NCBI GenBank assembly: GCA_018969385.1
Contig: JAGWYL010000003.1
Location: 1-59,925 of the forward strand
Source of the DNA: Patescibacteria group bacterium
GTDB taxonomy: Bacteria; Patescibacteriota; Minisyncoccia; Phycocordibacterales; Phycocordibacteraceae
Length of the DNA: 59,925 nt
Reading direction: 5' to 3'
Position 1 is the first letter of the stretch, and each line of letters starts with the position of its first letter. Shown in pieces: positions 7,642 through 25,416 of this stretch. Under the pieces are notes generated by a model. It was not told the DNA's origin, ran no database searches, and worked only from the letters and a program-made list of their open reading frames with translations. The position numbers were made by a program, and so were the translations under genes.

Positions 7642-8349
7642 ATGGATACGAAGAAGACCATAGGGGTCCTTGGCGGCATGGGCGCGGCCGCATCCGCTGA
7701 TTTCTATCAGCGGCTCGTCGAGCTTGCGCAGAAGGAATTCGGCGCGGTCAGGGATTCGGACTTCCCTCCCATGCTCATCTATAATCTTTCCATACGCGAT
7801 TTCGACGAGACCGGCGTCGTAGATGCTGACAGCGTCATCGCTCAGCTCGTCGCGGGTGTGCGGACACTTGAGTCCGCCGGTGCCGATTTCTTCGTCGTGC
7901 CCTGCAATACGGTACACCGCTTCGCGAAGGAGATGAGCGACGCGGTTTCCATCCCGCTCGTGAGCATCATCGACGCCACCGCTGACGCGGTACAGGACGA
8001 TGGCCTGAGGAAGGTCGGTATTCTGAGCTCACAGACGACGCGGAACGAATCGTTATATGAAAAGGCGCTCGCGTCTCGCGGCATAGCGGTGCTCCACGCG
8101 GATGATGCGGAGCAGGCGAAAATCAATGAGGTCATCGCGCACGTCATGCGGGGCACGAACGGCGCCGAGGACGTGGCGGCGCTTGCGGCAATCGCGAACC
8201 GCTTCAAAGCCGAGGGCGCTGAGGGCGTCGCGCTCGGCTGCACCGAATTGCCGCTCGCCATCACGCAAAAGGACGCCGCTCTTCCGCTCTATGGCTCGAC
8301 GGAAATCCTGGCCCGCGCCGCGCTCAAGTACTCGCTCGGGACTGCGTAG
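7642..8349 (+). CDS. Aspartate/glutamate racemase family protein (RacX/YgeA-like)
   Basis: GVLGGMG, PCNT and GCTE catalytic cysteine motifs. Confidence 0.92.
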   Translation: MDTKKTIGVLGGMGAAASADFYQRLVELAQKEFGAVRDSDFPPMLIYNLSIRDFDETGVVDADSVIAQLVAGVRTLESAGADFFVVPCNTVHRFAKEMSDAVSIPLVSIIDATADAVQDDGLRKVGILSSQTTRNESLYEKALASRGIAVLHADDAEQAKINEVIAHVMRGTNGAEDVAALAAIANRFKAEGAEGVALGCTELPLAITQKDAALPLYGSTEILARAALKYSLGTA

Positions 8350-8433: not shown

Positions 8434-9446
8434 ATGCAACGAAATCAGCATCCTGTACAGCAGTTGGCGACGGGCGAGAAGCTGTCCGTCACCTCCTATA
8501 GATTCTCGAGTTCACAGCACGGGCCGAAAGTCTATCTCCAGGCGAATATCCACGGTCCTGAGGTGCTCGGCACCGCAGTGCTCACGAAGCTGCTTCCCTG
8601 GTTGCACGAAATGGAAACCAAGGATATGTGCGGTTCCGTGATAGTCGTGCCCTGCGCGAACCCCATGGCCGTCCAGCAGACGGCATACAACAGCATGATA
8701 GGGCGCTGGAACGGCAGGAGCGGCATGAACTGGAATCGCATCACACCCCTGTCGGCGAATGGAGCGGCCATCTGGAGGAGCGGCAGTTTTACGAAAGGAT
8801 CAAGAACGCTCCAAACCCGTCGATAGAGAAGAAGCTTGCTGCGACCTTGCGCGTCTTATCCTGGAGTGCCGATTACGTAGTGGATATCCACACGACGGGC
8901 AATGAGAGCATCGTGCACCTTTTCACGTTCTCGTGGATGGATGAGGCGTTCGCGAGACTCGGCTGCCCGGTACACATCCACATCGATGACGACGGACCGG
9001 CGGGCGCATTCGACGAATCCCATGTGCTTCCGTTCCTAAAATCGATGTCGAGGGACCTCATACCGAAGGCGTGCACGTGGGAGATCGGCTCGCATGGCAG
9101 GATTCCGTCCCAAACGCTGCTCGACCGCAGCGTCGTTCTCAAGCTATGGCTCCGTTCTGTCTGGGACGGAACCACTGCACAGTCTAATGCGCGGTCACTG
9201 TCGAAGCCGGCAGCATTCAAGCGGCTCGGGCATCTGCATGCGCCGTTCGGGGGCTACTACACGTGGCAGAAGAAACCCGGTAGCGCGGTCAAGGCTGGAG
9301 AGACGTATGCGTACGTTTTCCAACCCTGGAACGGGATACGCCGGAAGGCCGTCGCCGAGTTCGACTTCGTCTTGCTCGGCATCTATGGCGCCGACGCGAC
9401 CGCAGCGCACGAACAGATCGGCTGTTTTGCCGCCGACCCGGTGTAG
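8434..9446 (+). pseudogene. Succinylglutamate desuccinylase/aspartoacylase (M14-like) gene split by a frameshift
   Basis: First frame has QANIHGPE, PCANP and NWNR. The second frame continues with DYVVDIHT and a C-terminal biotinyl-like segment. Frames join around the C4 run at 8746-8749. Confidence 0.8.
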
Positions 9447-9582
9447 TACAAGGGGTCTTGTGCATATATGTTCCGTCTGCAATGGCTGATCCTCACGGGT
9501 CGGCCATTGTTCTATAAAAATCGGGTCCGATCCAGCATGATGCCGGAGTCGGACCCGAAACAGACCGTGTGTGGCCTGTACG

Positions 9583-10572
9583 TTACTTCACCCATGCCGT
9601 GCCGCTTCTCCCCGGAAGACGTCCTTGCTTCGAGAAGCTCAGACGTTCGAAGCATTCAGAGTTTCGGAGTGCTTCCGGCAGTCCGTCGAGCGGGACAATT
9701 GCACACGACGCGCCCCGGTTAGACGCTTCTGCGAGAAATGCGTCCAGCATAGCGGCGAGCGCTTCCTCGCCGTCGAAGCGCGAGTAAGCGACATTCGTCA
9801 TGACAGCGGTGCCTTCCTGGAACGAGTACAGCGCGCAGCCGTGTGTCGCCTCATCGACCGTAAAGACACGGTACTGCTCAAGAGTGTTCATGATACGCTC
9901 GCGGCCCTGATCCCCGGCGTAGTCTTCGCCGAGGAAGAGCTTGATTTCCGGTACATCAGTAAGCTCGGCCTTCCTGACGAACTTGAAGCGCCGCATGTCC
10001 GAGTGCACGAACGTTCCGGAGCCGCTCGCCGTCAGAAGTTCCGCGAGAAGCGCGTGTGGATGGTGCGCATCGAACAGATGAACTGTCTCCACCGCGCGTT
10101 CGCAGGCGTTCGCAGCAAGGTCGAGGGTCAGTGTCCAGTCCCGGCTCACTTTCCCGTCGGCAATAAGCTTACGGACTTCCGAAACCGAGGCGTTATTGAG
10201 AACCGTGCCGTCCGCGAGCGTGCAGTTGCCCTCGCACAGGAGGATGAGCTTGTGCAAATTGCACTCATTCGCGATACCGGCGACGTACTCCTTCTCGTTG
10301 CCCCGGACGACGGACTGGACATAGATGGAGTCGGGCAGACCGTTCCAGAACATAGCGTCCATGGCTTCCGCGACGATGACAGGAACGCCATTCTCAAGGA
10401 GAAGCTCGATGTCCTCGCTGAGGATGGCCATATCATCGGAGTGGATTTGCGCGATGCCGTACGGCATGATGAGCACGTTACGGCCGCGCGTGTTGCGCAG
10501 ACAGTGGAGCGCTGCGCGGACCGCTGCAGTGTCGTCGGCGTAGGCGCGTCGCCGCGCTTGCTTTTCAGACAT
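9583..10572 (-). CDS. Degenerate ArgA-like protein (amino-acid-kinase domain plus GNAT-like domain)
   Basis: VHLFDAHHPHALLAELLTASGSGTFV, then VRKAELTDVPEI; AAGGAG SD. Confidence 0.7.
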   Translation of the reverse strand: MSEKQARRRAYADDTAAVRAALHCLRNTRGRNVLIMPYGIAQIHSDDMAILSEDIELLLENGVPVIVAEAMDAMFWNGLPDSIYVQSVVRGNEKEYVAGIANECNLHKLILLCEGNCTLADGTVLNNASVSEVRKLIADGKVSRDWTLTLDLAANACERAVETVHLFDAHHPHALLAELLTASGSGTFVHSDMRRFKFVRKAELTDVPEIKLFLGEDYAGDQGRERIMNTLEQYRVFTVDEATHGCALYSFQEGTAVMTNVAYSRFDGEEALAAMLDAFLAEASNRGASCAIVPLDGLPEALRNSECFERLSFSKQGRLPGRSGTAWVK

Positions 10573-10719
10573 CAGATACTCCTTCGCCCTATCAGAGGGC
10601 TTGACTGAGAGTTACGGGGAGTTTGGACGACATGAGTTGGAAAATATCGTCCGAAAACACTTTACACCGCACGTCAAGCACTGTCCACTTGACATGCGGT
10701 CATGATGTCGTGCCAAAAA

Positions 10720-12342
10720 TCAGGCGACAAGCGGCAATTCGACGATGAAGGTGGAGCCCCTATCCTTCCCTTCCGACTCGGCGCGGATGGTACCGCCGTG
10801 GGCAGTCACGATGTTCTTCGCGATGAAGAGCCCGTAGCCGGTCGAGTGGACGTTTATCTTTTGCGATTCCTTGCCGTGGCCGCCTTCCGTGAAGAGGCGT
10901 GCCTTGTCCTCGTCCGTGATGCCGACGCCCGTGTCCTTGACCGCGAAGACGGCTTTCCCGTCCTTTCTCGAAAGCGTGACATTGATGCTTCCCGAAGGCG
11001 TGTAGTTGATGGAGTTGTCCACGAGGTTCCCGAGTACGTGATCGCCGAGCTCCACCTTGTCGGCGGATACGGTATACGGCTTACCCGCTTCATCGGCTGC
11101 GTACGTGAGCGTAAGGCCCTTCGCATCGGCGTGCTCCCTGAGCTTCGCGACCGCTGCGGCTGCGAGCGCATCGAGGTCGAGCGGCTCCTTCGTATACTCC
11201 ACGGTCCCCTTCTTCTGGTTCGAGGCCTTGAGGATCTGCAGAACGGACGTCACGCTGTCACGCGATTGCGTGAGGGCGCGGTCGACGAACGGCTTCATGC
11301 CGTCCGGCAGCGCGCCGAAGTCGCCCTCGGAAAGCGCCGCGAAGGCGCCCATGTCCTTCGTGAGGAAGTTCTTCACCTCGTGGCTGATGAAACGGATGAG
11401 GTTTTCCTGCCGCTGGTTCGTGTCTTCAAGTTCTACGGCGAGCTTCTCTATCCGCTCCCGCTGTTCCACCTCCTTTACGACGCCGCGCGCGAGAAGAAGG
11501 CCGACGATGAGGATGAGCACGAACAGGCTGGTCCGGAAGAGTATGAGGATAGGATCGGTGGTGAAGATGAGCTCGAGCAGTGTCGCTATCGCGAGTGCGG
11601 ACACGAGGAGCGCCGTTCCGATCTCTTTCACGTTCAGCACGCGTCCCGTATAGATCGCGTATGCCGTCAATCCGATGAACGGGAGCAGGAATAGCGTCCC
11701 GAACGCAACGAAAGAGGAATTGCCGAGAAATGCGGGGAGTATGAAGCTGAACGCGAGTATTAGCAGTATCGTGGCGAACGTGCCGAGCAGTATCAGGCGG
11801 TACGGCCTTCGCTCCGCGCCCTGCGCACGGAGCGTCTTTTGCACCAGGAAGAACAGAGCGCCGATATCGAGCATGAGAACCAGGATGCCGAACAGGATGA
11901 TTCCGGGGCCGTTGACGACCTGGGTTACCTGCCCGTTTACGGAAAAGCTGCTGACCGCCGTGAAGACGAGCGGCGTGAGCGTGATGACCGAAACGAGGAG
12001 CGTCGCTGGAAGCACGGCGAGACGATACCAGCGAGGCAAGGGATGCTCCCGGTCCGGAAAGACGAAGAAGAAGGTGAAGAGCGAATAGGCGAACCAGACC
12101 GCGGTGAACATGATCATCCGCAGGAACCACAGCACGATAAGGGGGCTTGAGGACTGGTAGATCGCGTAGTTGAAAAGGCTCCAGACGACCGACGTTCCCG
12201 TGAGCGCCAGGAAGAAGCGATGCGTGATGCTGCCCATGTCGCTCAGATACACGACGAAACCCGTCGATATGAGTATCGCGGCTACCGCACCTACGGAAAG
12301 GAGCCCCGCGTTAACGTCGATTGCCAGGACCCCGTTCAGCAT
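10720..12342 (-). CDS. Sensor histidine kinase with N-terminal multi-TM domain
   Basis: Many hydrophobic helices, H-box ISHEVKN, N-box NLVDNSINYT, DTGVGI, STGYGLFIAK; start MLNGVL. Confidence 0.93.
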   Translation of the reverse strand: MLNGVLAIDVNAGLLSVGAVAAILISTGFVVYLSDMGSITHRFFLALTGTSVVWSLFNYAIYQSSSPLIVLWFLRMIMFTAVWFAYSLFTFFFVFPDREHPLPRWYRLAVLPATLLVSVITLTPLVFTAVSSFSVNGQVTQVVNGPGIILFGILVLMLDIGALFFLVQKTLRAQGAERRPYRLILLGTFATILLILAFSFILPAFLGNSSFVAFGTLFLLPFIGLTAYAIYTGRVLNVKEIGTALLVSALAIATLLELIFTTDPILILFRTSLFVLILIVGLLLARGVVKEVEQRERIEKLAVELEDTNQRQENLIRFISHEVKNFLTKDMGAFAALSEGDFGALPDGMKPFVDRALTQSRDSVTSVLQILKASNQKKGTVEYTKEPLDLDALAAAAVAKLREHADAKGLTLTYAADEAGKPYTVSADKVELGDHVLGNLVDNSINYTPSGSINVTLSRKDGKAVFAVKDTGVGITDEDKARLFTEGGHGKESQKINVHSTGYGLFIAKNIVTAHGGTIRAESEGKDRGSTFIVELPLVA

Positions 12343-12344
12343 AG

Positions 12345-14357
12345 CTATATTGGAAAGGTAGCACGATAATGGCCGTGATTGTAGAAGTTGATAACCGCAT
12401 CGGGGTGAAGCGCGGCAGCCTCGGCTCTGGAGTTGAATCTGACTGACGAAAAGACGGCGGCATTGAGGAACACGGGACTGTGCCACCCGGTCAGGCTGAG
12501 GAGCGGAAGGACTATCTCGTTACGGTATCCGTCATAATTGAGCGTACGAGAGGCGAAGTCGCGCATCTCCGCTACGAGCCGCGCTCGCTCTCCTTCCGGG
12601 AGATGATGGAGGAAGAGGACGGTCATCGCGATGTCGAAAAAATGCGGAGGAAATGCCGTCGGGAGCGTGAAGATGTCGTTATCCGCGGCTATGACCAGTA
12701 TCGAGTCGCCTGCTTCCCGCTCGTAATCAAGCAGCGCCTCCTTCGTGAGGCCGCTCACATGGATGAAACGGACACCCGGAAGATTCCGCAGGTTCCTTTC
12801 AGCATAGGCGCGCGCGCCCGAAGATATGTCGAATCCGACGATGGTGACGGGGCAGTGTGCGTCGTGTGCCCCAAGCCGTTCGATGAACTGTCGCTCCGCT
12901 TCCATGCTGCCACTCCCGAGCGAAGCGATGCGAAGGCGCGTACCGCCCGGCACGCGTGCTGCGGATTCGGTAAGGTAGCCGACGACCGGCTCTATGATTC
13001 CCGGCCGCGGTCTCCGTTCGATTTCCGACATCTTCTCGTGGAAGATCTCGTCGAGTTCGGGAAGCAGCTCGTTTATTTCGAGCAGGTGTTCGCGCCGTAT
13101 GCGTTTACGCGCGCCGTACAGCCATGTAAGGTAGCGTAAGGGTGAGCGGAGGGATTCGAAGAAAAGGATATTCTGTTCCACGGCGTACTGCTGATCCGGC
13201 AGGCCGTACGAAAGCATGCCGAGTTTCGCTGCAACCGCGTCGAGCTGTGCGCGCCGTTCGGTAGGAACAGCGGACGCCTGTGCGCGCCCGTCAACGGAAC
13301 TTTCCGGCACCTTCCGATAGCTTACCTCCGTCGGCGGCGCGGACTTTCCGATGCGGAAGACGAGGATGGGCGTCGTGCCGGCGGGTACGAGCTGCTTGAT
13401 TGCTTCATAGGCGCCGCCGATACGGGACCTGTCTGCATTCCCAAACAGCCGCGCGACCGCCGGGATGTCGAGGGAGCGAGCAAGGAACAGGAGACCGGTG
13501 ACAATCTGCACCGAATAGCCGTTCGCGGCGGCGCCGAGCCATGCGCGCTCAAGCGCGCGTCCGGTCTCAAGATAGGCAGAGCGGTCAAGCGTGCTGCCGT
13601 AGAGCACGACGAGCGCGGACGCGCTCGCATCCTGCTTCGCGTTCGTTTCCGCGACGAGGGTCGGGAAGCCGGCGAGAGAAAGGAGGCGGGCGACCGGCCA
13701 GTAGCGCAGGATAGCGAAGAGAGCCTTTGCGGGCGGCGGAAGCTCCAAGGTGTCGATGTGCAAGCCGGGCTCGCCTGCCCGATTCCTTGCCGCAGACCAG
13801 AAGATGCTCCCGAAGAAAAGCGCGTGCAGCGGCCGGTTGGACAGCGCCGTCTCCTCCATCACCGTGAGCGCGCGCGCGGCGCGCTCCATGCGCTCGCGTT
13901 CCTCTATGAGGGCGATACCGACTCCAGACTCGGAACCCCTCACAGCATCCCTAAGCGCCTCGCGCATCGCATCCGAGAGCGGCGCGACCGCATACGCCTT
14001 CCGGTTCGTGTGGCGCTTCAGGATGGAACGGCGCAATGCAGCCTCTTGCGCGCTCGGTTCGCCGCCCGAGGAAAGCTCAAGCGTAGCTACGCGCTCCCCT
14101 TCCGCATGGTACGTCACGCGCGGCAGGAAGCCTTGCGAGAGGGATTCCAGCCGCGCGTTCTCTATAGCGGCGCCGAGCGCGATGAGCGTGCCGCTTCGTT
14201 CGAAATTCAGGAGCTCATTGTCGAGTTCGGGCCGATAGAAGAAGTCGATTGCGGACCCGCGGACCTCGAACCGCCACGGCTGCGAATTATCGCCGGACGG
14301 CGCGGCGGCGGCGGCTTCAAGTATCGCTCGCAGCTTTTCCGGAGGTATGCCGGCCAT
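12345..14357 (-). CDS. Nitroreductase-family domain fused to a class I SAM-dependent methyltransferase
   Basis: AAPSGDNSQPWRF, RHTNRKAY, TGRALERAWL in the N half; IASLGSGS, VGFDIS, FDIAMTVLFLHHL in the C half. Confidence 0.85.
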   Translation of the reverse strand: MAGIPPEKLRAILEAAAAAPSGDNSQPWRFEVRGSAIDFFYRPELDNELLNFERSGTLIALGAAIENARLESLSQGFLPRVTYHAEGERVATLELSSGGEPSAQEAALRRSILKRHTNRKAYAVAPLSDAMREALRDAVRGSESGVGIALIEERERMERAARALTVMEETALSNRPLHALFFGSIFWSAARNRAGEPGLHIDTLELPPPAKALFAILRYWPVARLLSLAGFPTLVAETNAKQDASASALVVLYGSTLDRSAYLETGRALERAWLGAAANGYSVQIVTGLLFLARSLDIPAVARLFGNADRSRIGGAYEAIKQLVPAGTTPILVFRIGKSAPPTEVSYRKVPESSVDGRAQASAVPTERRAQLDAVAAKLGMLSYGLPDQQYAVEQNILFFESLRSPLRYLTWLYGARKRIRREHLLEINELLPELDEIFHEKMSEIERRPRPGIIEPVVGYLTESAARVPGGTRLRIASLGSGSMEAERQFIERLGAHDAHCPVTIVGFDISSGARAYAERNLRNLPGVRFIHVSGLTKEALLDYEREAGDSILVIAADNDIFTLPTAFPPHFFDIAMTVLFLHHLPEGERARLVAEMRDFASRTLNYDGYRNEIVLPLLSLTGWHSPVFLNAAVFSSVRFNSRAEAAALHPDAVINFYNHGHYRATFPI

Positions 14358-14360
14358 ACG

Positions 14361-15482
14361 CTACAGTCCGATGGATGCGAAGAAGTTCGCTCGCGCCGCT
14401 TCGCGGTTCGAAACGGTTTCCGGCGCATGGTAATCAGGGTCAAGAAGCGCATCGAGGCTCACCTCGCACTTTTCCTCCCGCACCGGCAGCCCGAGCGCGA
14501 GGCGCTTCAGCACATAGGCGATGGCCGCTCCGGAAAGCGTCGCCGCGTCGCCCGGCTGCGGCCAGGAGTATATCTCGCGGCCCACCTGGAGGAGCGATTG
14601 CATCATGCGTTCCGTGACGAAGTGCTGCCCTGCTATCTTCGTCGCGAGTTTCGGAAGCTCGGAGGGTTCGAACGACTTGAAAGACTCGAGCGTCACGTCG
14701 CCGATGATGCCGTTGAAGAGCGGCTTTGCGCGGTCGAGGTCGAATCGCTCCGTCTCGATGATGATGTTGTCGCCGTTGTCGGTCGCCATCACCACCGGTA
14801 TGCCGCGCTCGCGCGCGGCGATGCGGAGGCGTATCTTCATCTCAAGGTTGTCCGTTTCCTCGACGAGGACGTCCACGCCCGAGAGGAACTCGGCAAGATT
14901 CCCGTCAGTGACGCCTCCGTCATAGGCCGTGATGTCCGCATAGGGGTCGAGCTGGTAGAGGTACTCGCGCACCAGGTCCGCCTTCTTCCGCCCCACGGAA
15001 AGGAAGTCGAAGCGGATGCGGTTCAGGTTCGACGGGGAGACCTCGTCCGGGTCGGCTATCTTGATGCTCCGCGCGCCACCCATGAGCGCGAACGTAAGTG
15101 CGCCGTGGCTGCCCACGGATAGCCCCGCGTACGCGACGGTGAGTCCATAGAGCTTCTGCTGCTCCTCGTGCGTTACGATATTCCTGTTGCGCGCCGTGCG
15201 AATCTCAAGATGCTCGTCGCAGGGCAGGTAATGCGCAAGCGTGCCGCTCCAGGGAAAGTAGAACCACTCGCCGAGGGCGTCGGGAGCGCGTAGGGCGGCA
15301 TACGCATCCTTATACGCCGCGAGGTCGGCCGCATAATCCTTGATGAACTTATAGCGCGGATTACGGATGAGGAACTGGTCCTCAAGCAGGAGGTCGTACC
15401 GGTCTACCACCCGGGTCGGCGAAAGGCGTGCCTTAAATTCCGCAAAGGTCTCCTTCGCACGATCGAGCCGCTCCGGCCTCAT
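14361..15482 (-). CDS. ThiF/E1-like adenylating enzyme, Rv1355c/MoeY type
   Basis: WFYFPWSG, RTARNRNIVTHEEQ, YAGLSVGS, ADPDEVSPSNLNRI, EETDNLEMK. Confidence 0.88.
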   Translation of the reverse strand: MRPERLDRAKETFAEFKARLSPTRVVDRYDLLLEDQFLIRNPRYKFIKDYAADLAAYKDAYAALRAPDALGEWFYFPWSGTLAHYLPCDEHLEIRTARNRNIVTHEEQQKLYGLTVAYAGLSVGSHGALTFALMGGARSIKIADPDEVSPSNLNRIRFDFLSVGRKKADLVREYLYQLDPYADITAYDGGVTDGNLAEFLSGVDVLVEETDNLEMKIRLRIAARERGIPVVMATDNGDNIIIETERFDLDRAKPLFNGIIGDVTLESFKSFEPSELPKLATKIAGQHFVTERMMQSLLQVGREIYSWPQPGDAATLSGAAIAYVLKRLALGLPVREEKCEVSLDALLDPDYHAPETVSNREAARANFFASIGL

Positions 15483-15506
15483 GGAAAAATCTTAGCACGT
15501 TTCGGC

Positions 15507-17060
15507 TTAGGAAGGGCGCACCACCCATTGCTGCTTCACGCCCGGCCTGAAATAGAGCGGGTCCTCGTACGGCCAGAAGACGAGGCGGGGCTCCGCGCGC
15601 TTTCCGAGGAATTCGGAAAGCTCGCGATACTCGGAATTCTTCTCGCGGAGGTTCTTTACGATTTCCGTAAGCAGTTCCGCCTGGAGCACCTTGCCGGCCT
15701 CCTTGCCGGGCTTCTGCTCGATGTTCACTTCGAGGTACTGGTCCTGGTTGTGGTCGTACTTCGTGACGAGCGCTATCTTGCCCGTCATGTGCGGAGCGAA
15801 CCGCTTGTCGAGGAGCACCTGGCGTATCGTTTCCGGGTAGATCTGGAGCCCGTAGAGCGTCGTCGCGAGGTCGATGCGCTCGTAGACGTAGACGAACGGG
15901 AGCTTCAGCACCTGCTTCGCAATGCCCGCCTTGCGTATCTCGCGCTCGAGATCGATGCCGTGCGTACGGCAGCGCTCGACGATTTCCTTGAACGAATAGA
16001 CGCCGCCGTGGTCGCCGATGGAATAGCGGATGAGCGGGAGCGCGCTGTCCCCCGTGAGGAGGACTTCCCCGTTCGGCGCTTCGAACGAGACGAACTCCGG
16101 CAGGTACTGCGCGAGCGTGGGCGTCTTCATGGTGCCGCGGAAGAGGTCGTTGAAGAGCGCTTCGTTGTCGCGCGCGAGGCGGCGGATGAGTATGGAAAGC
16201 GGCGTCTCGAACGCCATGGTGCCGATGTCGGCGCTGCCGTAGATGTTCGCGGTATCGGTGAGCGGGTTCTTCACGTTCGCGCGCGACGCGACGTAATCGC
16301 GGAACTCCTCGGTGAATGCTTCCGCAGCGAAGAGAAGCGCGACCCGGTGCTTGTCGAACGTCGCGCCATGCGCCGGCGCCTCGTCGATGACGTCTTTCAG
16401 GAACGGCGGGTAGCCGGCCAGTATGAGCTGTTCGTACTGCGGTGCGAGGTCGCGCAGTATCTTGAATATCTCGGACTTGTTGATGCCGGGCGTTATGACG
16501 GAGACGGGATATCCGCGCCGTCCGAGGAGGTCGAACGCCTCATACGTGATGAGTCCGCCGATCCAGACGCCCATACCGAAACAGACGATGACGAGCGTCG
16601 ACTTATTGAGTTCGAGCGAGCTCGAGCGATAGAAGAGCTCGTGTATGAACGAAGAGTGGTCGTCCACTTCGTGCGAACGCCCGAAGTACGTCGGCGCGCC
16701 CGTCGAGCCGGACGTTGCGGTGAGGACGTGCGGCGCGCGCAGCGAACCGTTCCAGAAGAGTTCCTTGAACGGGTATGCGTGCAGGTAATTCTGCTTGGTG
16801 ACCGGAGGCACGATGGCGAGGTCCGACGGCGATTCCACGAGCTCCGCATGCACGTGATTATCCTTGAGGAAGCGCTTGTACGCGGGAACGCCGCTCGCCG
16901 CGCGCTTGAAGAGGTCAAGCGCCGTGCGCTGCTGGCTGCGCGACCATTCCTGGCTCGTTTTCGCGGAGAGCTGCTCGAGCAACGGCACATGCGTTCGCGC
17001 CGCAGCGTTTCCGTTCGCATTCCTACCGCGGCTTATCGGCCGCAGGCTGGATCGCTTCAT
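15507..17060 (-). CDS. Phenylacetate-CoA ligase-like (PaaK/F390 synthetase family) adenylate-forming enzyme
   Basis: TSGSTGAPTYF, FGMGVWIGG, AGYPPFL, YGSADIG, LIRYSIGDHG. Confidence 0.87.
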   Translation of the reverse strand: MKRSSLRPISRGRNANGNAAARTHVPLLEQLSAKTSQEWSRSQQRTALDLFKRAASGVPAYKRFLKDNHVHAELVESPSDLAIVPPVTKQNYLHAYPFKELFWNGSLRAPHVLTATSGSTGAPTYFGRSHEVDDHSSFIHELFYRSSSLELNKSTLVIVCFGMGVWIGGLITYEAFDLLGRRGYPVSVITPGINKSEIFKILRDLAPQYEQLILAGYPPFLKDVIDEAPAHGATFDKHRVALLFAAEAFTEEFRDYVASRANVKNPLTDTANIYGSADIGTMAFETPLSILIRRLARDNEALFNDLFRGTMKTPTLAQYLPEFVSFEAPNGEVLLTGDSALPLIRYSIGDHGGVYSFKEIVERCRTHGIDLEREIRKAGIAKQVLKLPFVYVYERIDLATTLYGLQIYPETIRQVLLDKRFAPHMTGKIALVTKYDHNQDQYLEVNIEQKPGKEAGKVLQAELLTEIVKNLREKNSEYRELSEFLGKRAEPRLVFWPYEDPLYFRPGVKQQWVVRPS

Positions 17061-17079
17061 GTGCGAACACTCTAACACA

Positions 17080-18105
17080 TCATGAGATATTTGTGAAGAC
17101 CTTTGCGAAGTTATCCACAACCCCGCCCATGTCCTCCGGCGAGGGGATGGCGATACGAAGCGTGTCGACGAGGAGTGACTTGGCCTCCGGGAAGCGGCTC
17201 ATATCCTCCCCGAGGGCGACGCGGACGCCGAGTCCCCCGAGCTTTTCGGCTGCCTCGCGCGCATGCGGAACATGAATGAACGCGAAGTTCGTTTCCGTGG
17301 GGAGCGTCTGCACGTTCGGAAGCGCTTGGAGCGCCTCGAAGAAGGACGCTCGCATCCTGATGACCGCGTCGCGCCTCTCCTTCACCTTTTCCGCGCGGCC
17401 AAGGAGCGCGAGCGCCGCAGCGGCGCTTTCGTGCGCGACCGGCCACGGCAGGAGTTCCCTTTGCATGCGTTCCACCGCTTCAGGTGCGGCGATGGCGTAG
17501 CCTACGCGCGCGCCCGGTATGCCGAACGCTTTCGAAAGGGTGCGCAGGATGATGAGATTCGGCTTGAGCGTGAGAGACGGCAGGAGCGTCCGTCCGGAGT
17601 ATTCGAAGTACGCTTCGTCGGAAACCGTGATGACATCATTTAGGGATGCGGTTTCAAGCACGCGCGCGGCATCCGCATCCTTGATGCCGCAGCCGAGCGG
17701 GTTGTTCGGGTTGCAGAGGAACACCGCCTTCGGCTTCCCTGCGGTAATCGCGGCAAGCGTGCGGCGCAGCGGGAATTCCGGCTCTCCCGCCTCGCTTTCG
17801 TACGGCACCGGCACGATTTCCGAACCGACGCGGTCGAGGATGCGCTCATAGCCGTAGAACGTGGGTACGGGCAGCACCGCTTCGCCCTTCCCCACGTACG
17901 CGCGGGCTATCGCCTCTATGGCCGCATCGGAGCCGGGAGTCACGAGGATGCAATCCTCCGGCACGTCGGCGTACGCGGCAAGCGCCGCCTTGAGCGCCGT
18001 GTAGTCCGGATACGTGCCGAGTTCCATCCGCCCGAATCCGCGTGCCGCTTCGACGAGCTCGTCGTCGAGGAGCCAGTAGCTTTCGTTCTTATCGAGGGGA
18101 ATCAT
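17080..18105 (-). CDS. HisC-like class I/II PLP aminotransferase
   Basis: TPGSDAAI, LCNPNNP, DEAYFEY, RTLSKAFGIPGARVGY. Confidence 0.88.
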   Translation of the reverse strand: MIPLDKNESYWLLDDELVEAARGFGRMELGTYPDYTALKAALAAYADVPEDCILVTPGSDAAIEAIARAYVGKGEAVLPVPTFYGYERILDRVGSEIVPVPYESEAGEPEFPLRRTLAAITAGKPKAVFLCNPNNPLGCGIKDADAARVLETASLNDVITVSDEAYFEYSGRTLLPSLTLKPNLIILRTLSKAFGIPGARVGYAIAAPEAVERMQRELLPWPVAHESAAAALALLGRAEKVKERRDAVIRMRASFFEALQALPNVQTLPTETNFAFIHVPHAREAAEKLGGLGVRVALGEDMSRFPEAKSLLVDTLRIAIPSPEDMGGVVDNFAKVFTNIS

Positions 18106-18108
18106 AGG

Positions 18109-18153
18109 GACAGCGTACAGCGTACAGGTTGCAGCGTACAGTCGTACAGGTTG
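18109..18153. repeat. 7-bp-period tandem array
   Basis: GTACAGC/GTACAGG/TTGCAGC units immediately upstream of the aminotransferase start. Confidence 0.85.
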
Positions 18154-18174
18154 TGCATACTGAACGTGGTCAAT

Positions 18175-18203
18175 TTGACATTTGAAACGTGTGGGGGTAT
18201 TAT
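18175..18203 (+). promoter_or_regulatory. Near-consensus sigma70 promoter of the T-box leader
   Basis: TTGACA-17 nt-TATTAT. Confidence 0.85.
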
Positions 18204-18209
18204 CCTTTC

Positions 18210-18510
18210 AGACGATTCCTGATAACCGTAATGCTTTCGATTCCGGTCCCCCGTGAGATAGGCAAAGCCGTCATCTCACGGGGGGTTGGGCCGGAATCGC
18301 TCCGTGAGATAGGCAAAGCCGCCATCTCACGGGGCAAGGCGGCTTCTGCGTGAGTGGAAGCCCGGACTCCCCCGTAATCATGGGATACCCGATGTCGCGA
18401 GAGCGGAGTCGGCATGAGGTTCGCCTTCGGGCGGACAAAGTAAGGTGGCACCGCGGAAATCCGCCCTTACGATACGAGCGCATTGCGTTCGCATCGCGAG
18501 GGCGGTTTTT
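18210..18510 (+). ncRNA. T-box riboswitch leader
   Basis: Stem III GTTCGCC-TTCG-GGCGGAC, T-box AAGGTGGCACCGCGG (18442-18456), antiterminator partner CGCCCTT, terminator CCGCCCT...AGGGCGG followed by T5 (18461-18510). The 5' boundary is estimated from the promoter. Confidence 0.85.
18251..18334 (+). repeat. Two tandem 33-bp hairpin repeats in the T-box leader
   Basis: CCGTGAGATAGGCAAAGCCG(T/C)CATCTCACGGGG at 18251-18283 and 18302-18334, one mismatch. Confidence 0.9.
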
Positions 18511-18549
18511 CATTTTGGAAACCGCATTGTCCTTTGGAAGGGTACTCAG

Positions 18550-19380
18550 ATGACAGAGGAATTCGTGTTCACCAATGAGCTCATCGCCGGGTCTGTAACG
18601 CTCCGTGGCGACGCGAAGGCGGTCATAAGCACCGTCGCATACGAGCATCCCGACGGGATGCCGGCGCGGTTCGCGGCAGGGCTCATTCCGGCATTCGTCC
18701 TCGCACGCCAATTGCGTGAGAGAGGCATCTTCACCATTGTCCGGATCATCGATCCGACGAGGGTGGCCAACTACTGCAACGGCTGGCAGATGGGGTCGGA
18801 TAAGCTTGACCAGGTCGTCGGTGAGCTCGCGGCGATGCTTGAGGATCGGATCAGCACTACCGAATCGTGCATGCCGCTCACGGGAACGAGCATCCGCCTC
18901 CTCCGAAGCTTGGCGAACGAGCTTGAGGAAGCCGATGGCGCTGTGGGCGAGATGCTTGAACGGTTGCGCTGCTCGGGTCGGCGACACGGAGGTGAGAATG
19001 GTGCGCGTAACGTTGCGCTTTACGCGGCTGCACACCCGTTCTCGTGGCTCGATCTCTTGCACGATTCGTTGTGGAGGGGTCGGTCTTATGAGGCATATCA
19101 GCACATAAACCTCATGAGCAAACCGGAGAGCCGCTTCAGCGTGATGCGCGCATATCTCCGCGACCGTCATCCGGAGATCGCATCGAAAGCGCCGAGGATC
19201 GACCTCGAGATGAAGGTCTGCAATACGCCTTGCTACCTTCGCCTCGACGATGAGCCGACCTTCGACGACTTCATGCGCGACGGTTACGACACGACGCTTG
19301 AGACGTATTACGCCTTACGAACGCGGTCGCAGAACCATCGTCGTGCCTATAACGACTTCAAGGTGCTTTCCCGTTACTGA
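18550..19380 (+). CDS. Hypothetical T-box-controlled protein, possibly class I aaRS/CDPS-like fold
   Basis: SD GGAAGG; directly after the T-box terminator and followed by its own terminator. Confidence 0.75.
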   Translation: MTEEFVFTNELIAGSVTLRGDAKAVISTVAYEHPDGMPARFAAGLIPAFVLARQLRERGIFTIVRIIDPTRVANYCNGWQMGSDKLDQVVGELAAMLEDRISTTESCMPLTGTSIRLLRSLANELEEADGAVGEMLERLRCSGRRHGGENGARNVALYAAAHPFSWLDLLHDSLWRGRSYEAYQHINLMSKPESRFSVMRAYLRDRHPEIASKAPRIDLEMKVCNTPCYLRLDDEPTFDDFMRDGYDTTLETYYALRTRSQNHRRAYNDFKVLSRY

Positions 19381-19393
19381 AAGTGCCTATTAC

Positions 19394-19434
19394 GCCCGGT
19401 ACCGCATACTTCGTGCGGCACCGGGCTCCCTTTT
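19394..19434 (+). terminator. Intrinsic terminator-like hairpin
   Basis: GCCCGGTACCGCA / TGCGGCACCGGGC followed by TCCCTTTT. Confidence 0.6.
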
Positions 19435-19461
19435 ATCGGAAACTCCTAGTATGATTCGCCT

Positions 19462-20154
19462 ATGAAGACACTCGGCATGCTCGGCGGCGTCGGTCCGCAG
19501 ACGACCGCGGAGACCTATCTTTCGGTCATAGAGGCGGTCCGCAAGGCCGGCCGCGACTCCTATCCCCCCATCGTCGTGTACAATCTCCCCTTTCCCTTCC
19601 GCGTCGAACGCGAAGCGATAGTGGAAGGAAGGAACGCGGAGCAGATGATTCCCTTCCTGACCGAGGGTGCTCGGGTTCTCGAACGTTCGGGTGCCGATTT
19701 CGGCATCCTTCCCTGCAATACGCTCCACGCTTACATCGAGGATGTCCGAAAGGCGTCCTCCGTCCCTTTCCTGTCCATACTTGAGGAAACGGCGCGCGCG
19801 CTTTCTGCGTTCGAACCGAAGACGATAGGATTCCTGGCGACACGCTCCACGCTCGCAAGCGGCATATACGAGCGCGCGCTCGCAGGGACCGGACGAGCGT
19901 TCGTCTATCCGGCGGAGGATGAACAGATGGCGCTTACGGAGATGATAGTGCGCCTCCTTGCGGGTTCCCCCGGATATGAAGAACGCGCGGTCGTGGAGAC
20001 GGTGGCGGAGTCGCTCGCCGCCCGCGGCGCAGACGTCATCCTGCTCGCCTGCACCGATATCCAGCTCGCGGCGAGACACGCTGACGTGCCCGTGCCGATA
20101 GTCGACACGATGGAAGTGCTTGGCAATGCGGCTGTTCGCGAACTCCTCGCCTGA
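19462..20154 (+). CDS. Second aspartate/glutamate racemase family protein
   Basis: GMLGGVGP, PCNT, ACTD motifs. Confidence 0.9.
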   Translation: MKTLGMLGGVGPQTTAETYLSVIEAVRKAGRDSYPPIVVYNLPFPFRVEREAIVEGRNAEQMIPFLTEGARVLERSGADFGILPCNTLHAYIEDVRKASSVPFLSILEETARALSAFEPKTIGFLATRSTLASGIYERALAGTGRAFVYPAEDEQMALTEMIVRLLAGSPGYEERAVVETVAESLAARGADVILLACTDIQLAARHADVPVPIVDTMEVLGNAAVRELLA

Positions 20155-20733: not shown

Positions 20734-21816
20734 TCAGAGCCCTTCCGTCTTCAGGTCCTCGACCGCTTTCTTCGCGTTGCCCGAAAGTTTCTGCGGCATG
20801 ATGACGCGAACGTTGATGAGCAGGTCGCCGCGCGTTCCCTGGAGCGCTACGCCCTTGCCGCGGATGCGCAGCACCTCTTCCGCGCGCCGCATCGCGGGTA
20901 CTTTCACTTCTATGGTCTTGCCGTCGATGGTTTCGACGGAAACCGTGGCGCCGAGAAGCGCATCCGTGAGCTTCACCGGAAGCTCCATGAGAAGATTCGC
21001 GCCGTCCTTGCGGAAGACCGGATGCGGCTGCACGTGCACTTTGACGTAGAGGTCGCCCGGCGTGCCGCCCTTCACCGCTTCGCCCTTCTGCGGAAGGCGT
21101 ATCATCTCGCCGTTGTCCATGCCCGCGGGAATGTCTATGGAAATCTCTTCTTCCTTGCGGTGCACGCCGTGTCCGCCGCAGGCGGTGCACTTCTCCTTCG
21201 GAATCTTGCCGGTCCCTTCGCAGGCCGGGCAGGCGCGCACGCTGGTGAATGCGCCAAGGATGGAATTGCGCGTCTCATGCACGCGCCCCGAGCCGCCGCA
21301 GGTGGAACAGGTCTCAAGTTCGGTTCCCGGCTTAGCGCCGGAGCCGTGGCACACGTCGCAGGCGGACACTTTCGCGAGCAGCACGGAGCGTTTCGCGCCA
21401 AGGACGGACTCCTTGAAGGAAATCTGGATGTCGATGGAGATGTCGCGTCCGCGCTTCCCGCGTGCCTGCCGGCTGCCGCCGAAGATATCGCCGAAGCCGT
21501 CGAACAGGTCGCCGAAGTCGAACTCCGCTCCCTGGCCGCCGAAGCCCTGCTGGAACTGCGAGAAGTCGAACCCGCCGAAGCCGGCGCCCTGTCCCTGCGA
21601 TCCGCCTCCCGCGAAGGATTGCCCGTAGGTGTCGTACTCCCGACGGCGCTTGTCATCGCCGAGAACGCTGTACGCCTCCGTTATTTCCTTGAACTTCGCT
21701 TCGTCGCCGCCCTTGTCCGGGTGATACTTCTGGGCGAGCTTGCGGAACGCTTTCTTGATGTCGTCCTTCGACGCCTTCTTGTCGACGCCGAGCGTTTCGT
21801 AGTAATTCTTGGCCAT
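20734..21816 (-). CDS. dnaJ: Chaperone DnaJ
   Basis: J domain with HPD, G/F region, four CxxCxGxG repeats. Confidence 0.98.
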   Translation of the reverse strand: MAKNYYETLGVDKKASKDDIKKAFRKLAQKYHPDKGGDEAKFKEITEAYSVLGDDKRRREYDTYGQSFAGGGSQGQGAGFGGFDFSQFQQGFGGQGAEFDFGDLFDGFGDIFGGSRQARGKRGRDISIDIQISFKESVLGAKRSVLLAKVSACDVCHGSGAKPGTELETCSTCGGSGRVHETRNSILGAFTSVRACPACEGTGKIPKEKCTACGGHGVHRKEEEISIDIPAGMDNGEMIRLPQKGEAVKGGTPGDLYVKVHVQPHPVFRKDGANLLMELPVKLTDALLGATVSVETIDGKTIEVKVPAMRRAEEVLRIRGKGVALQGTRGDLLINVRVIMPQKLSGNAKKAVEDLKTEGL

Positions 21817-24449: not shown

Positions 24450-24989
24450 TCAAGCATGGCCAGCGAAGTGGTAGACGCGGACTTTGGCCGGGCGGATGAC
24501 GGAGTCCCCGAGTTTCCAACCCCTTTCCAGGACCGCAGAGACGGTATCGTCCGCTCCGGCGGAAGGCGCCGGATCCTGGCCGAGCGCGTCGTGGAGCGCT
24601 GGATTGAAGGCTTCACCCGCTTCCCCGAGCGGTTCGAGTCCGAGCGACGAGAAGCCGCCCTCGAGCTGCCTCACGATGCCTGCGAAGCCTTCCGGCAGCC
24701 CGCCGTGCTCCTTCGCGCGCTCGAGCGCGTCGAAGGCGGGCAGGAGCGCCTCCGCCGCTTTTATTACGCCGCGCATCCTCTCTGCCTTCTTCTCTTCGTC
24801 GAACCGCTTAAGCGCGTTCACGTAGTCCGCCTTTGCACGCTGCCAGCCGTCAAGGTACTCCTGCTTCTCCGTCTTGCAGGCGTCCAGTTCGCTCGTGAGC
24901 TTCGCGATTCGCTTCTCCGGGTCGCTCCCCCTAGGCGGCTCGTTATTTTCCGGTTCGAATTCGAACTCTTCGTCTCCTGTCTCACTCAT
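24450..24989 (-). CDS. grpE: Nucleotide exchange factor GrpE
   Basis: RAKADYVN, FNPALHDA, GWKLGDSVIRPAKV. Confidence 0.95.
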   Translation of the reverse strand: MSETGDEEFEFEPENNEPPRGSDPEKRIAKLTSELDACKTEKQEYLDGWQRAKADYVNALKRFDEEKKAERMRGVIKAAEALLPAFDALERAKEHGGLPEGFAGIVRQLEGGFSSLGLEPLGEAGEAFNPALHDALGQDPAPSAGADDTVSAVLERGWKLGDSVIRPAKVRVYHFAGHA

Positions 24990-25020
24990 GCGCCAACTAT
25001 GCCCGAAGTTCTGGGGCAAA

Positions 25021-25416
25021 TCAAATCTGATCACCGCGGAATATGGCTTCTACATTGTTACCTTCCGGGTCGAGCACGAAAGCAACATAGCGCCCGGTCG
25101 GATAGCGCTCCCTGCCACCGGGTGCTCCGTAGTCTGTTGCGCCAGCTCCTATGGCCGCTGCATAGAACGCCTCGACAGTCCCCTCCGAGTCTGCAGAGAA
25201 CGCAACGTGCAATCCTTTCGAGACCGATCTCCCCTCCTTCGGCATCGAAATCCAGAAGAAGGGTCTGTCCACGCCGTATCCGCAAGACGTCTCCTTCTCA
25301 AGCAGTCGACGCATATTGAGTGGCGCTAGTGCGGCGTCATAAAAATGAAGCATCTTCCGATAGTCCAGGACGGCGAATCCGATGTGGTCAAGCGGGCTTA
25401 GTACCATCTCCGTCAT
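25021..25416 (-). CDS. VOC/glyoxalase family protein
   Basis: DHIGFAV, HVAFSA, FVLDPEGNNVE. Confidence 0.88.
   Translation of the reverse strand: MTEMVLSPLDHIGFAVLDYRKMLHFYDAALAPLNMRRLLEKETSCGYGVDRPFFWISMPKEGRSVSKGLHVAFSADSEGTVEAFYAAAIGAGATDYGAPGGRERYPTGRYVAFVLDPEGNNVEAIFRGDQI

Follow-up and report, generated by a model that had tools for sequence, protein, structure and literature searches.

TrzS, OxzB and TyzBC have been shown experimentally to be oxazolone synthetases, which convert N-acyl amino acids to unsaturated oxazolones. In TrzS, the ATP-binding aspartate is D217 and the flavin-site arginine is R540. A ThiF-like adenylating cyclase and a nitroreductase-fold FMN oxidase are common to OxzAB of Pseudoalteromonas rubra, TyzACB, TrzAS of Mycobacterium tuberculosis (Rv1355c is TrzS) and the locus described here. 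In the agr, com and cqs signalling systems, the signal or tailoring gene and the membrane half of the kinase vary together, giving pherotypes or specificity groups, and the catalytic half of the kinase is conserved.

CPR bacteria (Patescibacteria) represent a large share of bacterial diversity; their genomes are tiny, most live attached to other cells, and cultivation is very difficult. The locus lies in a window (the whole stretch of DNA that was analysed, 59,925 nt) from a Paceibacteria/Kaiserbacteria-like bacterium, and its initial annotation as CPR DNA was upheld. With slightly better than even confidence, the locus is interpreted as a conserved Patescibacteria cassette that couples small-molecule synthesis to a dedicated membrane receptor kinase. 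This reading takes in gene order, domain identities, conservation, accessory swaps and the co-variation of sensor and methyltransferase, all of which were observed directly.

Five genes follow each other on the minus strand in the order aminotransferase, ligase, ThiF-like protein, nitroreductase-methyltransferase and histidine kinase. The initially annotated gaps of 19, 24, 3 and 2 bp were confirmed by the ORF coordinates, and the gene types and their order by domain matches and structure models. The minus strand from 9400 to 19500 contained no terminator-like site in a consensus scan. A further ORF on this strand (9583-10572), the sixth, starts 147 bp past the kinase gene. It matched the NCBIfam amino-acid N-acetyltransferase model PRK05279 (2.3e-19) and, in the PDB, acetylglutamate kinase (9e-9) and the N-acetylglutamate synthase (NAGS) 2r8v (1e-5); the Pfam NAT domain was matched at 0.053 only. 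No homologues of this ORF were detected in 92 related loci. On its profile matches it is a possible amino-acid N-acyltransferase specific to this window and a possible sixth gene of the operon. The earlier statement that no acyltransferase is present holds for the conserved cassette: among 80 loci, none of the OxzA/TyzA/TrzA type was conserved in it, the four core genes alone recur widely, and a PaaK-fold ligase always occupies the acyltransferase's place. It does not strictly hold for the window, which carries the unrelated NAGS-like ORF downstream of the kinase.

Comparison was done with 80 related genome loci, apparently all from CPR bacteria except the GC-rich L076. Order and strand of the ligase-ThiF-nitroreductase-kinase core were kept across these loci, and the core was found in at least six named CPR candidate phyla (Kaiser-, Wolfe-, Lipton-, Lloyd-, Magasanik- and Doudnabacteria). 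Where the contig left room, the ligase was present in 67 of 68 loci, the nitroreductase in 76 of 77 and the kinase in 58 of 63, being missing in five; conservation of the kinase with the enzymes had been set beforehand as a test of the proposal, and it held across these phyla. Recurrence of this order in dozens of divergent genomes puts the arrangement far outside what chance would produce. Flanking genes were conserved among close relatives only. The fixed five-gene operon initially proposed gave way to a four-gene core with swappable accessories. No description of this cassette was found in the literature searched.

Strong conservation might also be expected of housekeeping enzymes for cofactor, tRNA or cell-envelope modification, with the adjacent kinase reflecting shared regulation of a core process beside a conserved dnaK-dnaJ neighbourhood. 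The cassette is widespread, its ThiF-like protein shares 44-77% identity among the named CPR phyla, it often lies between grpE-dnaK-dnaJ on the upstream side and aminoacyl-tRNA synthetase genes on the downstream side, and the ThiF relative TcdA cyclises a tRNA base. This explanation is nevertheless considered highly improbable: the accessories (methyltransferase, exporter, hydrolases, aminotransferase or dehydrogenase) vary as in specialised metabolism, close relatives carry differing sensor halves, and a scan of 185,579 species genomes with two exact peptide patterns, which does not estimate prevalence, confirmed only 166 relatives.

The first gene of the operon (17080-18105, minus strand, ORF of 341 aa) encodes a HisC-like aminotransferase, which matched Pfam Aminotran_1_2 (2e-39) and TIGR01141 hisC (3e-58). 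An equivalog-level match to HisC was not reached, at 197 bits against the cutoff of 276.55, and the protein was placed in the HisC/CobD-like subgroup of class I/II PLP enzymes. An aminotransferase was located directly upstream of the ligase in approximately 17 loci. In approximately 21 others the same slot was taken by a non-homologous, ScyB-like ELFV amino-acid dehydrogenase, for which the ScyB model was the best match (approximately 1e-84, 284 bits against an equivalog cutoff of 600). The aminotransferase of the initial annotation is part of the operon in this window and is swapped for an amino-acid dehydrogenase in other lineages, which gives two routes between an amino acid and a 2-oxo acid. 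Further accessories were a MacB/FtsX ABC exporter with HlyD in place of the kinase (one locus, L046), recurring S9 peptidases or alpha/beta-hydrolases (L003, L014, L077, L080 and L087), and an S66 carboxypeptidase with a truncated class II aaRS-like gene (L088). By their predicted functions, exporter, hydrolases and the L088 genes point to a secreted, amide-type small molecule. In Wolfe- and Liptonbacteria loci, stand-alone receiver genes immediately preceded the ligase gene, and approximately ten distant loci carried one to three of them adjoining or near the ligase.

Core gene 1 (15507-17060, minus strand, 517 aa from the ATG at 17060) encodes a PaaK-clade adenylate-forming ligase. No Pfam family was matched; NCBIfam PaaK (TIGR02155) was matched at 4e-16 and PaaK among PDB sequences at 5e-11. 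The AlphaFold model (pLDDT 85) showed the two-domain adenylate-forming fold of the PaaK type, with PaaK1/2 (2y27; 4.5e-24, probability 1.00) as best Foldseek match; PaaK1/2 and BT_0428 ranked first, followed by AjiA1, 2-hydroxyisobutyryl-CoA ligase and ClxA. The P-loop (T114-P123), D350 and the C-terminal catalytic K509 were invariant in 27 orthologues. Assignment as a true PaaK was rejected at 58 bits against an equivalog cutoff of 646, and the protein was classified as PaaK-like only. It could also be an ordinary CoA ligase. AjiA1, ClxA and the related NatL2 are described as ligases of heterocycle pathways that catalyse amide or ester bond formation directly (PMC12519233, PMC9400959, PMC7204872).

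Core gene 2 (14361-15482, minus strand, ORF of 373 aa) encodes the ThiF-like protein, a candidate adenylating cyclodehydratase, which matched NCBIfam NF005901, the Rv1355c family (1.7e-72, 244.8 bits), and Pfam ThiF (2e-21). Residues 32-358 were aligned with profile positions 45-349, including much of the N-terminal extension. Invariant in 18 orthologues were G120-S125, N152-R155, K167 and T234-D238, the last containing the 'ATDN' motif with D235. Core gene 3 starts 3 bp past the ThiF gene and forms residues 1-360 (13278-14357) of the 670-aa nitroreductase-methyltransferase ORF (12345-14357, minus strand). This part matched positions 375-716 of NF005901 (2e-45, 155.2 bits), the Acg-family FMN oxidoreductases (8e-34) and Pfam Nitroreductase (2e-10); it is a tandem nitroreductase-fold FMN oxidoreductase carrying the sequence 'PSGDNSQPWRF'. 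The two genes correspond to the N- and C-terminal halves of TrzS, a split TrzS/OxzB architecture that agrees with the OxzB-type pairing first proposed. The whole-protein cutoff of the Rv1355c family (476 bits) was not reached by the 244.8 and 155.2 bits of the two genes, and their chemistry may therefore differ. From these domain assignments, the likely product of the enzymes is an oxazolone-like molecule assembled from an acid and an amino acid. A point against a signal cassette of this kind is that the known oxazolone desaturases use O2 and that many CPR bacteria live without oxygen.

Characterised ThiF-like enzymes other than the oxazolone synthetases act on peptides, proteins or tRNA. The cassette enzymes might accordingly modify a peptide or protein, either in a RiPP-like pathway or by acting on the C-terminal end of a partner protein, and the kinase would regulate this or serve as peptide receptor; some loci do contain S9 prolyl oligopeptidases, an MvdD-like ATP-grasp enzyme, the S66 carboxypeptidase and the aaRS-like gene. 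Within the cassette and its surroundings, the coding strand of the 80 loci held no conserved small ORF for a precursor peptide; all conserved short ORFs were antisense shadows of core or flanking genes, and the gaps between the genes are only 2-24 bp. The alignment with the TrzS family over residues 32-358, with scores far above those against other ThiF families, likewise argues against peptide modification, which is regarded as improbable.

The methyltransferase part comprises residues 361-670 (12345-13277) of the fusion ORF and is an accessory. The fusion noted in the initial annotation is present but peculiar to this window: the methyltransferase was a separate gene of approximately 312 aa in 11 of 11 other genome loci carrying one, and in all 29 clusters that make up the family in a set of 5.8 billion proteins. 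Methylation of the product, originally proposed for the operon, could not be extended to the cassette in general, as the methyltransferase is a rare variant among the loci. Profile search against PDB sequences gave no significant match, and eight of 12 orthologues had sub-threshold matches to Pfam Methyltransf_25/11/12. The AlphaFold model (pLDDT 92.9) matched exclusively class I SAM methyltransferases in Foldseek, with CurJ C-MT, CmoA, SgvM and NovO/CouO at the top (E approximately 4e-8). An 'LGSGSME' loop with G121/G123 was invariant, as was D150. The predicted structure is a Rossmann-type class I SAM fold with a glycine-rich SAM loop.

Core gene 4 (10720-12342, minus strand, 540 aa from the ATG at 12342) encodes the histidine kinase. 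Its sensor half (residues 1-295, 11458-12342) has approximately 9-10 hydrophobic segments by hydropathy, taken as transmembrane segments, and the DHp and catalytic ATPase half comprises residues 296-540 (10720-11457). Pfam HisKA_7TM was matched at 6.9e-07 (29.8 bits, barely over the 28.6-bit cutoff) and HATPase_c at 4e-23. The H-box 'SHEVKNF' contains H321, and H321, N439/N443, D470-G472-G474 and G502-G504 (H, N and G1/G2 boxes) were kept in at least 90% of 64 kinase orthologues. Conserved residues of the sensor half were W54, N58, Y59, Y62, R75, K169, Y228 and K239. The sensor-domain family comprised 404 representatives at E<=1e-10; among the matches listed, full-length members were mostly 515-580 aa long with the sensor domain at the N-terminus. 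As judged from these alignments, kinases with this sensor domain form one uniform family.

Pairwise identities were compared by methyltransferase status in 24 close loci. In pairs differing in presence of the methyltransferase, the ThiF-like proteins were on average 73% identical (up to 89%) and the catalytic halves of the kinase 53% (up to 79%), whereas the transmembrane halves were just 38% identical and at most 44%; pairs in which both loci carried the methyltransferase had transmembrane halves 64% identical. Thus, L001 and L007 shared 88% identity in ThiF, 80% in the ligase, 67% in the catalytic half and 35% in the transmembrane half, which was 77% identical between L001 and L018. In neighbour-joining trees, methyltransferase-bearing loci were interspersed for ThiF and the catalytic half, and formed one clade for the transmembrane half, including L024 of a different ThiF lineage. 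A metagenome scan with motifs of the methyltransferase-linked sensor retrieved 12 loci, among them distant ones with ThiF 34-39% identical and L086 with a different gene order; the methyltransferase was directly upstream in 11 of the 11 that could be judged. Position 47 of the sensor was aliphatic in 20 of 20 methyltransferase loci and Phe in 46 of 54 others; position 84 was Phe or Tyr in 20 of 20, and among the 54 others His in 29, Gln in eight and Phe in eight. Few independent events underlie these statistics. The sensor half tracks presence of the methyltransferase; it follows neither enzyme phylogeny nor that of the catalytic half of the same kinase. Co-variation and recurrence of the pairing in these sequences suggest that the kinase senses the cassette product.

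The same association could be a by-product of physical linkage. Methyltransferase and sensor are encoded on adjacent DNA, and one recombination tract explains their joint inheritance without a functional link; the closest correlate of sensor distances is the neighbouring nitroreductase (r = 0.69). In that case the pathway would yield an effector (an antibiotic, a protective lipid-like molecule or a compound directed at the host, for example), and the kinase would merely control the pathway in response to another cue, for instance the surface of a host, stress on the membrane or a nutrient. The exporter locus L046 without kinase is in line with this, as are the AfsR/BTAD-type regulator of the non-CPR locus L076, which resembles ordinary biosynthetic clusters, and the description of M. 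tuberculosis oxazolones as lipids and not as signals. Against it, one module boundary coincides exactly with the nitroreductase/methyltransferase junction and the other, within the kinase gene, with the sensor/DHp junction. In a deeper sensor tree the methyltransferase-associated sensors did not form a single clade, with L070, L086 and the L085-L091 group placed apart, yet positions 47 and 84 differ also in these distant lineages. The sensor half is 35-45% identical across the named CPR phyla, equal to or above the catalytic half (24-38%, distant loci), and its helices contain polar residues; such conservation fits one conserved ligand class. Effector synthesis with an independently cued kinase is considered rather unlikely, and more weight is given to a cassette whose kinase reads its own product.

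For this signal-coupled cassette, the following pathway is proposed. The aminotransferase would interconvert an amino acid and a 2-oxo acid and supply a building block, a role that the amino-acid dehydrogenase would fill in other lineages. The PaaK-fold ligase would adenylate a carboxylic acid and couple it to an amino acid at the amino group, standing in for the acyl-CoA-dependent N-acyltransferase of the known oxazolone pathways. The carboxylate of the N-acyl amino acid would be adenylated and cyclised by the ThiF-like enzyme, and desaturation by the nitroreductase-fold flavoprotein would yield an unsaturated oxazolone-type heterocycle, as with OxzB, TyzBC and TrzS. In the variant of this window, the SAM-dependent methyltransferase may methylate the product or its 2-oxo-acid precursor. 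The hydrophobic product would be exported and sensed within the membrane by the putative ligand-binding domain of approximately 9-10 helices. Kinase output may pass through stand-alone receiver proteins, which are cassette-adjacent in some lineages and would be encoded elsewhere, if at all, in this genome.

We tentatively extend this to an ancient communication system of the CPR bacteria's own, a possibility held somewhat short of even: a new class of oxazolone-type autoinducers would be read by kinases with approximately 9-10 helices, in pherotype-like variants (methylated and unmethylated) with receptor-pocket changes at positions 47 and 84. The cassette is kept across many CPR lineages that have shed most of their metabolism, and therefore an important function is expected. 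It is a compact system of three to five soluble enzymes, one product and one kinase family. Should the product be a signal, it would represent a new chemical class of bacterial autoinducer and could help cultivation and the dissection of episymbiosis; the communication system might control how ultra-small bacteria behave towards each other or, as symbionts, towards a host. Oxazolone-synthetase chemistry would be extended to a ligase-dependent, acyl-CoA-free route, and the natural receptor variants are offered for the study of ligand specificity in membrane-embedded kinases.

Compared with the known oxazolone systems of Proteobacteria or Actinobacteria, the hosts of the cassette are CPR bacteria. 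Its ThiF-like and nitroreductase proteins are encoded by adjacent genes, as are TyzB and TyzC, whereas the N-acyltransferase (OxzA, TyzA or TrzA) is replaced by the PaaK-fold ligase, an enzyme for amino acid/2-oxo acid interconversion and sometimes a methyltransferase are added, and a histidine kinase is joined to the enzymes. No link to a histidine kinase was found in the literature consulted on the known oxazolone synthetase systems. The ligase shares its fold with ClxA, NatL2 and AjiA1 of benzoxazole pathways; these enzymes open heterocycle formation by adenylating an acid and transferring it to a nucleophile. ClxA and AjiA1 are among the solved structures nearest to it after PaaK itself, although sequence identity is only 14-18% and their partner is an amidohydrolase instead of ThiF and a flavoprotein. 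In scytonemin synthesis, the tryptophan dehydrogenase ScyB catalyses the entry step and converts an amino acid into an aryl-pyruvate building block; in contrast, the cassette loci lack other scytonemin genes, and the ScyB-like dehydrogenase is not found in this window.

The signalling systems agrBDCA of staphylococci, comQXPA of Bacillus and cqsA-cqsS of Vibrio differ from the cassette in their signals, as the proposed CPR signal would be neither a ribosomal peptide nor a hydroxyketone. No homology of the kinase to AgrC, ComP or CqsS was detectable; its sensor matches Pfam HisKA_7TM. A cassette of this type would be expected to encode a cognate response regulator with the kinase, but no response regulator gene is located anywhere in the 60-kb window; this operon has no DNA-binding response regulator, and other loci have stand-alone receiver domains only. 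As in those systems, the sensor half co-varies with a gene of signal synthesis and the catalytic half does not, here on adjacent DNA segments and with few independent events. The logic shared with all three is that signal-making genes stand beside a multi-pass histidine kinase, in the cassette within one conserved operon (gaps of 2-24 bp, 58 of 63 loci).

Five consecutive minus-strand genes, all arranged head to tail, were located in the window, encoding an aminotransferase (17080-18105, 341 aa), a ligase (15507-17060, 517 aa), a ThiF-like protein (14361-15482, 373 aa), a nitroreductase-methyltransferase (12345-14357, 670 aa) and a histidine kinase (10720-12342, 540 aa). The intergenic gaps of 19, 24, 3 and 2 bp agreed with the initial annotation, which had described an operon, and no terminator-like site was found on the minus strand within the five-gene run. 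The ligase start at 17060 was backed by full-length alignment with orthologues of 515-519 aa; a shorter product of 484 aa is called in one database entry.

The aminotransferase was assigned to the HisC/CobD-like PLP enzymes (Pfam, 2e-39), with the hisC model scoring under its cutoff. The ligase had no Pfam match and matched PaaK weakly by sequence. Its AlphaFold model (pLDDT 85) was best superposed on PaaK1/2 and BT_0428, followed by AjiA1, 2-hydroxyisobutyryl-CoA ligase and ClxA, and its P-loop, D350 and the C-terminal K509 were invariant in 27 orthologues. The ThiF-like protein matched the N-terminal half of the Rv1355c family profile (1.7e-72), and the nitroreductase part, i.e., the first 360 residues of the 670-aa protein, matched the C-terminal half (2e-45). 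For the last 310 residues of this protein, only sub-threshold methyltransferase matches were obtained by sequence, and single-sequence and profile searches of the PDB gave no significant match. Their identity was obtained by fold comparison alone: the confident model (pLDDT 92.9) has the fold of class I SAM methyltransferases and comes closest to natural-product C-methyltransferases, to CmoA and to SgvM, a methyltransferase of keto acids. The kinase contained about 9-10 hydrophobic segments, a Pfam HisKA_7TM match barely over the cutoff, and an intact H-box (H321), N box and G boxes. The sensor domain alone formed a family of 404 representatives (50% clustering, E ≤ 1e-10), and full-length members among the matches listed were mostly 515-580 aa long with the domain at the N-terminus.

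When a ThiF alignment was used to scan one genome from each GTDB species, 80 related loci were obtained, all apparently from CPR bacteria save one GC-rich locus (L076), and including Kaiser-, Wolfe-, Lipton-, Lloyd-, Magasanik- and Doudnabacteria. Source-named best relatives of ThiF and ligase were labelled Paceibacteria, Kaiserbacteria, Minisyncoccota or Patescibacteria, and with these labels the assignment of the host organism to the CPR was correct. The order ligase-ThiF-nitroreductase-kinase and the common strand were kept in nearly all loci, as found by tblastn with the window proteins as queries. Complete genomes with the cassette include OZ246418.1 and CP011209.1. Of the loci whose sequence extends far enough, 67 of 68 have the ligase, 76 of 77 the nitroreductase and 58 of 63 the kinase. 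The initial annotation had regarded absence of the kinase from loci that keep the enzymes as evidence against a signalling operon; by these counts, the opposite was clearly found. Wide recurrence was limited to the four core genes upon clustering of all ORFs.

Around this core, accessory genes were exchanged or added. The aminotransferase gene adjoined the ligase gene on its upstream side in about 17 loci, and the same slot was occupied in about 21 other loci by a non-homologous 350-aa amino-acid dehydrogenase of the ELFV family, with the tryptophan dehydrogenase ScyB as best model (about 1e-84, under its cutoff). The presence of two unrelated enzymes for amino acid/2-oxo acid conversion in one slot argues that this step is part of the pathway. 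The methyltransferase was rare: it formed 29 clusters within a set of 5.8 billion proteins and occurred in about 12 of the 80 loci. It was fused in frame to the nitroreductase in the window only, with a separate gene everywhere else. Extra genes between nitroreductase and methyltransferase were observed in two loci (L088, 1711-4978, and L087, 2-1030), encoding an unknown 377-aa protein, an S66 LD-carboxypeptidase and a truncated class II aminoacyl-tRNA-synthetase-like protein; an S9 peptidase gene was located upstream in L087. S9 peptidases or alpha/beta-hydrolases were inserted in several loci, and an MvdD-like ATP-grasp enzyme was added in one. Action of the enzymes on a peptide or protein was nevertheless judged quite unlikely, as no conserved precursor ORF was found: when ORFs of 18-90 aa within 1.5 kb of the cassette were clustered across 80 loci, only antisense shadows of core or flanking genes were conserved.

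In locus L046, the ligase, ThiF, nitroreductase and methyltransferase genes were followed, in the usual place of the kinase, by genes for a MacB/FtsX permease, an ABC ATPase and a HlyD-type adaptor (13179-15987). The apparently non-CPR locus L076 (GC 0.66, labelled Pseudomonadota) comprised ligase, ThiF and nitroreductase without the kinase, and a 1236-aa AAA/BTAD (AfsR-like) regulator was encoded in the position of the latter. One to three stand-alone receiver genes were located directly 5' of the ligase gene in loci of Wolfe- and Liptonbacteria. In the 60-kb window, neither phmmer searches with CheY and PhoB nor tblastn with receiver proteins of CPR bacteria revealed a response regulator or receiver gene. 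A housekeeping modification by the enzymes was considered highly improbable.

A divergent unit on the plus strand took up most of the sequence upstream of the aminotransferase gene. Its T-box-like leader (18307-18471) contained a good T-box motif, UAAGGUGGCACCGCG, and scored 34.9 bits (E 3e-6 for the stretch), below the Rfam gathering score of 93. Before the leader, the unit (18175-18525) had a near-consensus promoter-like site, TTGACA-17-TATTAT (18175-18203), and a pair of hairpin repeats of 33 nt each (18251-18283 and 18302-18334), and a terminator-like hairpin came after it (18502-18525). The unit was directed away from the operon, toward plus-strand ORFs and an amino-acid racemase gene (19462-20154). 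A conserved regulatory motif was sought 5' of the operon: close relatives carry TAGTACAATACAGGGAC before the aminotransferase start, and the window has unrelated repeats of the heptamer CTGTACG, in several copies at 18110-18153 directly 5' of the start codon. The racemase gene and its paralogue at 7642-8349, both of the Asp/Glu type (CuyB/asp_race-like, E about 1e-48 to 1e-52), lie on either side of the operon on the opposite, plus strand, and no counterpart of either was seen close to the cassette in its relatives. An N-acetylglutamate synthase/kinase-like ORF (9583-10572, minus strand), 147 bp 3' of the kinase gene, was not mentioned in the initial annotation and may encode an amino-acid N-acyltransferase. 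It had no counterpart in any of 92 related loci and may be either unrelated or a local source of an N-acyl amino acid. The two racemases and this ORF were rejected as parts of the system and treated as local neighbours, since they were conserved in no related locus. Upstream of the operon lie dnaJ (20734-21816, minus strand) and, further upstream, two minus-strand ORFs (22451-24352 and 24450-25034) that by size and position are probably dnaK and grpE. A similar chaperone-gene neighbourhood was present in about 16 related loci; grpE-dnaK-dnaJ upstream and aminoacyl-tRNA synthetase genes downstream flanked the cassette in subsets of loci only. Elsewhere in the window, a full-length match to the LOOT RNA motif of Rfam was obtained (54362-54482, minus strand; 81.9 bits, gathering score 46.4). 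A patch of low G+C content with short ORFs only (52000-54000; 0.51 versus about 0.62) adjoins a candidate GTPase-like gene (51023-52192, by reading of the translation) and may be a small inserted element.

Co-variation of the kinase with the methyltransferase was analyzed in 24 close loci with a ThiF at least 60% identical to that of the window, by comparing pairs of loci unlike in methyltransferase status. In these pairs, mean identity was 73% for ThiF (maximum 89%), 53% for the catalytic half of the kinase (maximum 79%) and 38% for its transmembrane half (maximum 44%), and the transmembrane half was 64% identical between loci that both had the methyltransferase. Locus L001, with methyltransferase, and locus L007, without it, had identities (%) of 88 for ThiF, 80 for the ligase, 67 for the catalytic half and 35 for the transmembrane half; the transmembrane half was 77% identical between L001 and L018, which both have the methyltransferase. 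The same pattern was found for L024, which belongs to another ThiF lineage. In neighbour-joining trees, methyltransferase loci were dispersed for ThiF and the catalytic half and formed a single clade for the transmembrane half. Conversely, a scan of metagenome contigs with motifs of the sensor type found with the methyltransferase returned 12 loci, and the methyltransferase gene was located immediately 5' of the kinase gene in all 11 that could be judged. These included distant loci with ThiF identities of 34-39% and one with the gene order ThiF-ligase-nitroreductase-methyltransferase-kinase (L086). All 20 methyltransferase loci have Leu, Ile or Val at sensor residue 47 and Phe or Tyr at residue 84. 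Of the 54 other loci, 46 have Phe at residue 47, and at residue 84, 29 have His, 8 have Gln and 8 have Phe. Strict monophyly of the methyltransferase-associated sensors failed at depth, where no single clade was formed, so the association is strong only among more closely related lineages and at residues 47 and 84. Mirror-tree correlations were suggestive (r = 0.69 for sensor versus neighbouring nitroreductase distances), but were rejected as evidence because they are confounded by gene adjacency. Since the methyltransferase gene adjoins the sensor-coding DNA, joint transfer of the two could also reflect linkage. With the co-variation on one side and this linkage on the other, a kinase that senses another cue and merely regulates the enzymes as an effector pathway was given some weight as an alternative, though a doubtful one.

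The preferred reading is a biosynthetic pathway with its own sensor. In OxzAB, TyzACB and TrzAS, an N-acyl amino acid is made by an acyl-CoA-dependent N-acyltransferase, followed by ATP-dependent cyclisation and desaturation by a ThiF-like cyclase and a nitroreductase-fold oxidase. For ClxA, NatL2 and AjiA1 of the PaaK clade, formation of amide or ester bonds directly from the acyl adenylate has been reported (PMC12519233, PMC9400959, PMC7204872). Because the cyclase and oxidase genes are adjacent in the cassette and a PaaK-clade ligase with amide- and ester-forming relatives takes the place of the acyltransferase, a corresponding pathway was proposed. Beside the observed architecture, conservation, functional swaps and co-variation, we infer all of its steps as follows. 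The aminotransferase or dehydrogenase would interconvert an amino acid and a 2-oxo acid, and the ligase would acylate the amino acid at the expense of ATP. Cyclodehydration by ThiF, desaturation by the flavoprotein and an optional methylation could then yield a hydrophobic product, which would be detected by the membrane domain of the kinase, with output via stand-alone receivers.

The cassette was not found described in full-text literature on oxazolone or ThiF-nitroreductase in combination with CPR, histidine kinase or quorum sensing, or on HisKA_7TM, and it is of high interest for CPR biology. Its enzymes resemble a split oxazolone synthetase in the way they would work, but differ from that family in two respects: they score below the family cutoff, and they lack the partner acyltransferase. 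The agr, comQXP and cqsA/S systems include pherotype-like variation limited to the tailoring gene and the membrane half of the kinase. The cassette, although without homology to them, has this logic in common with them.
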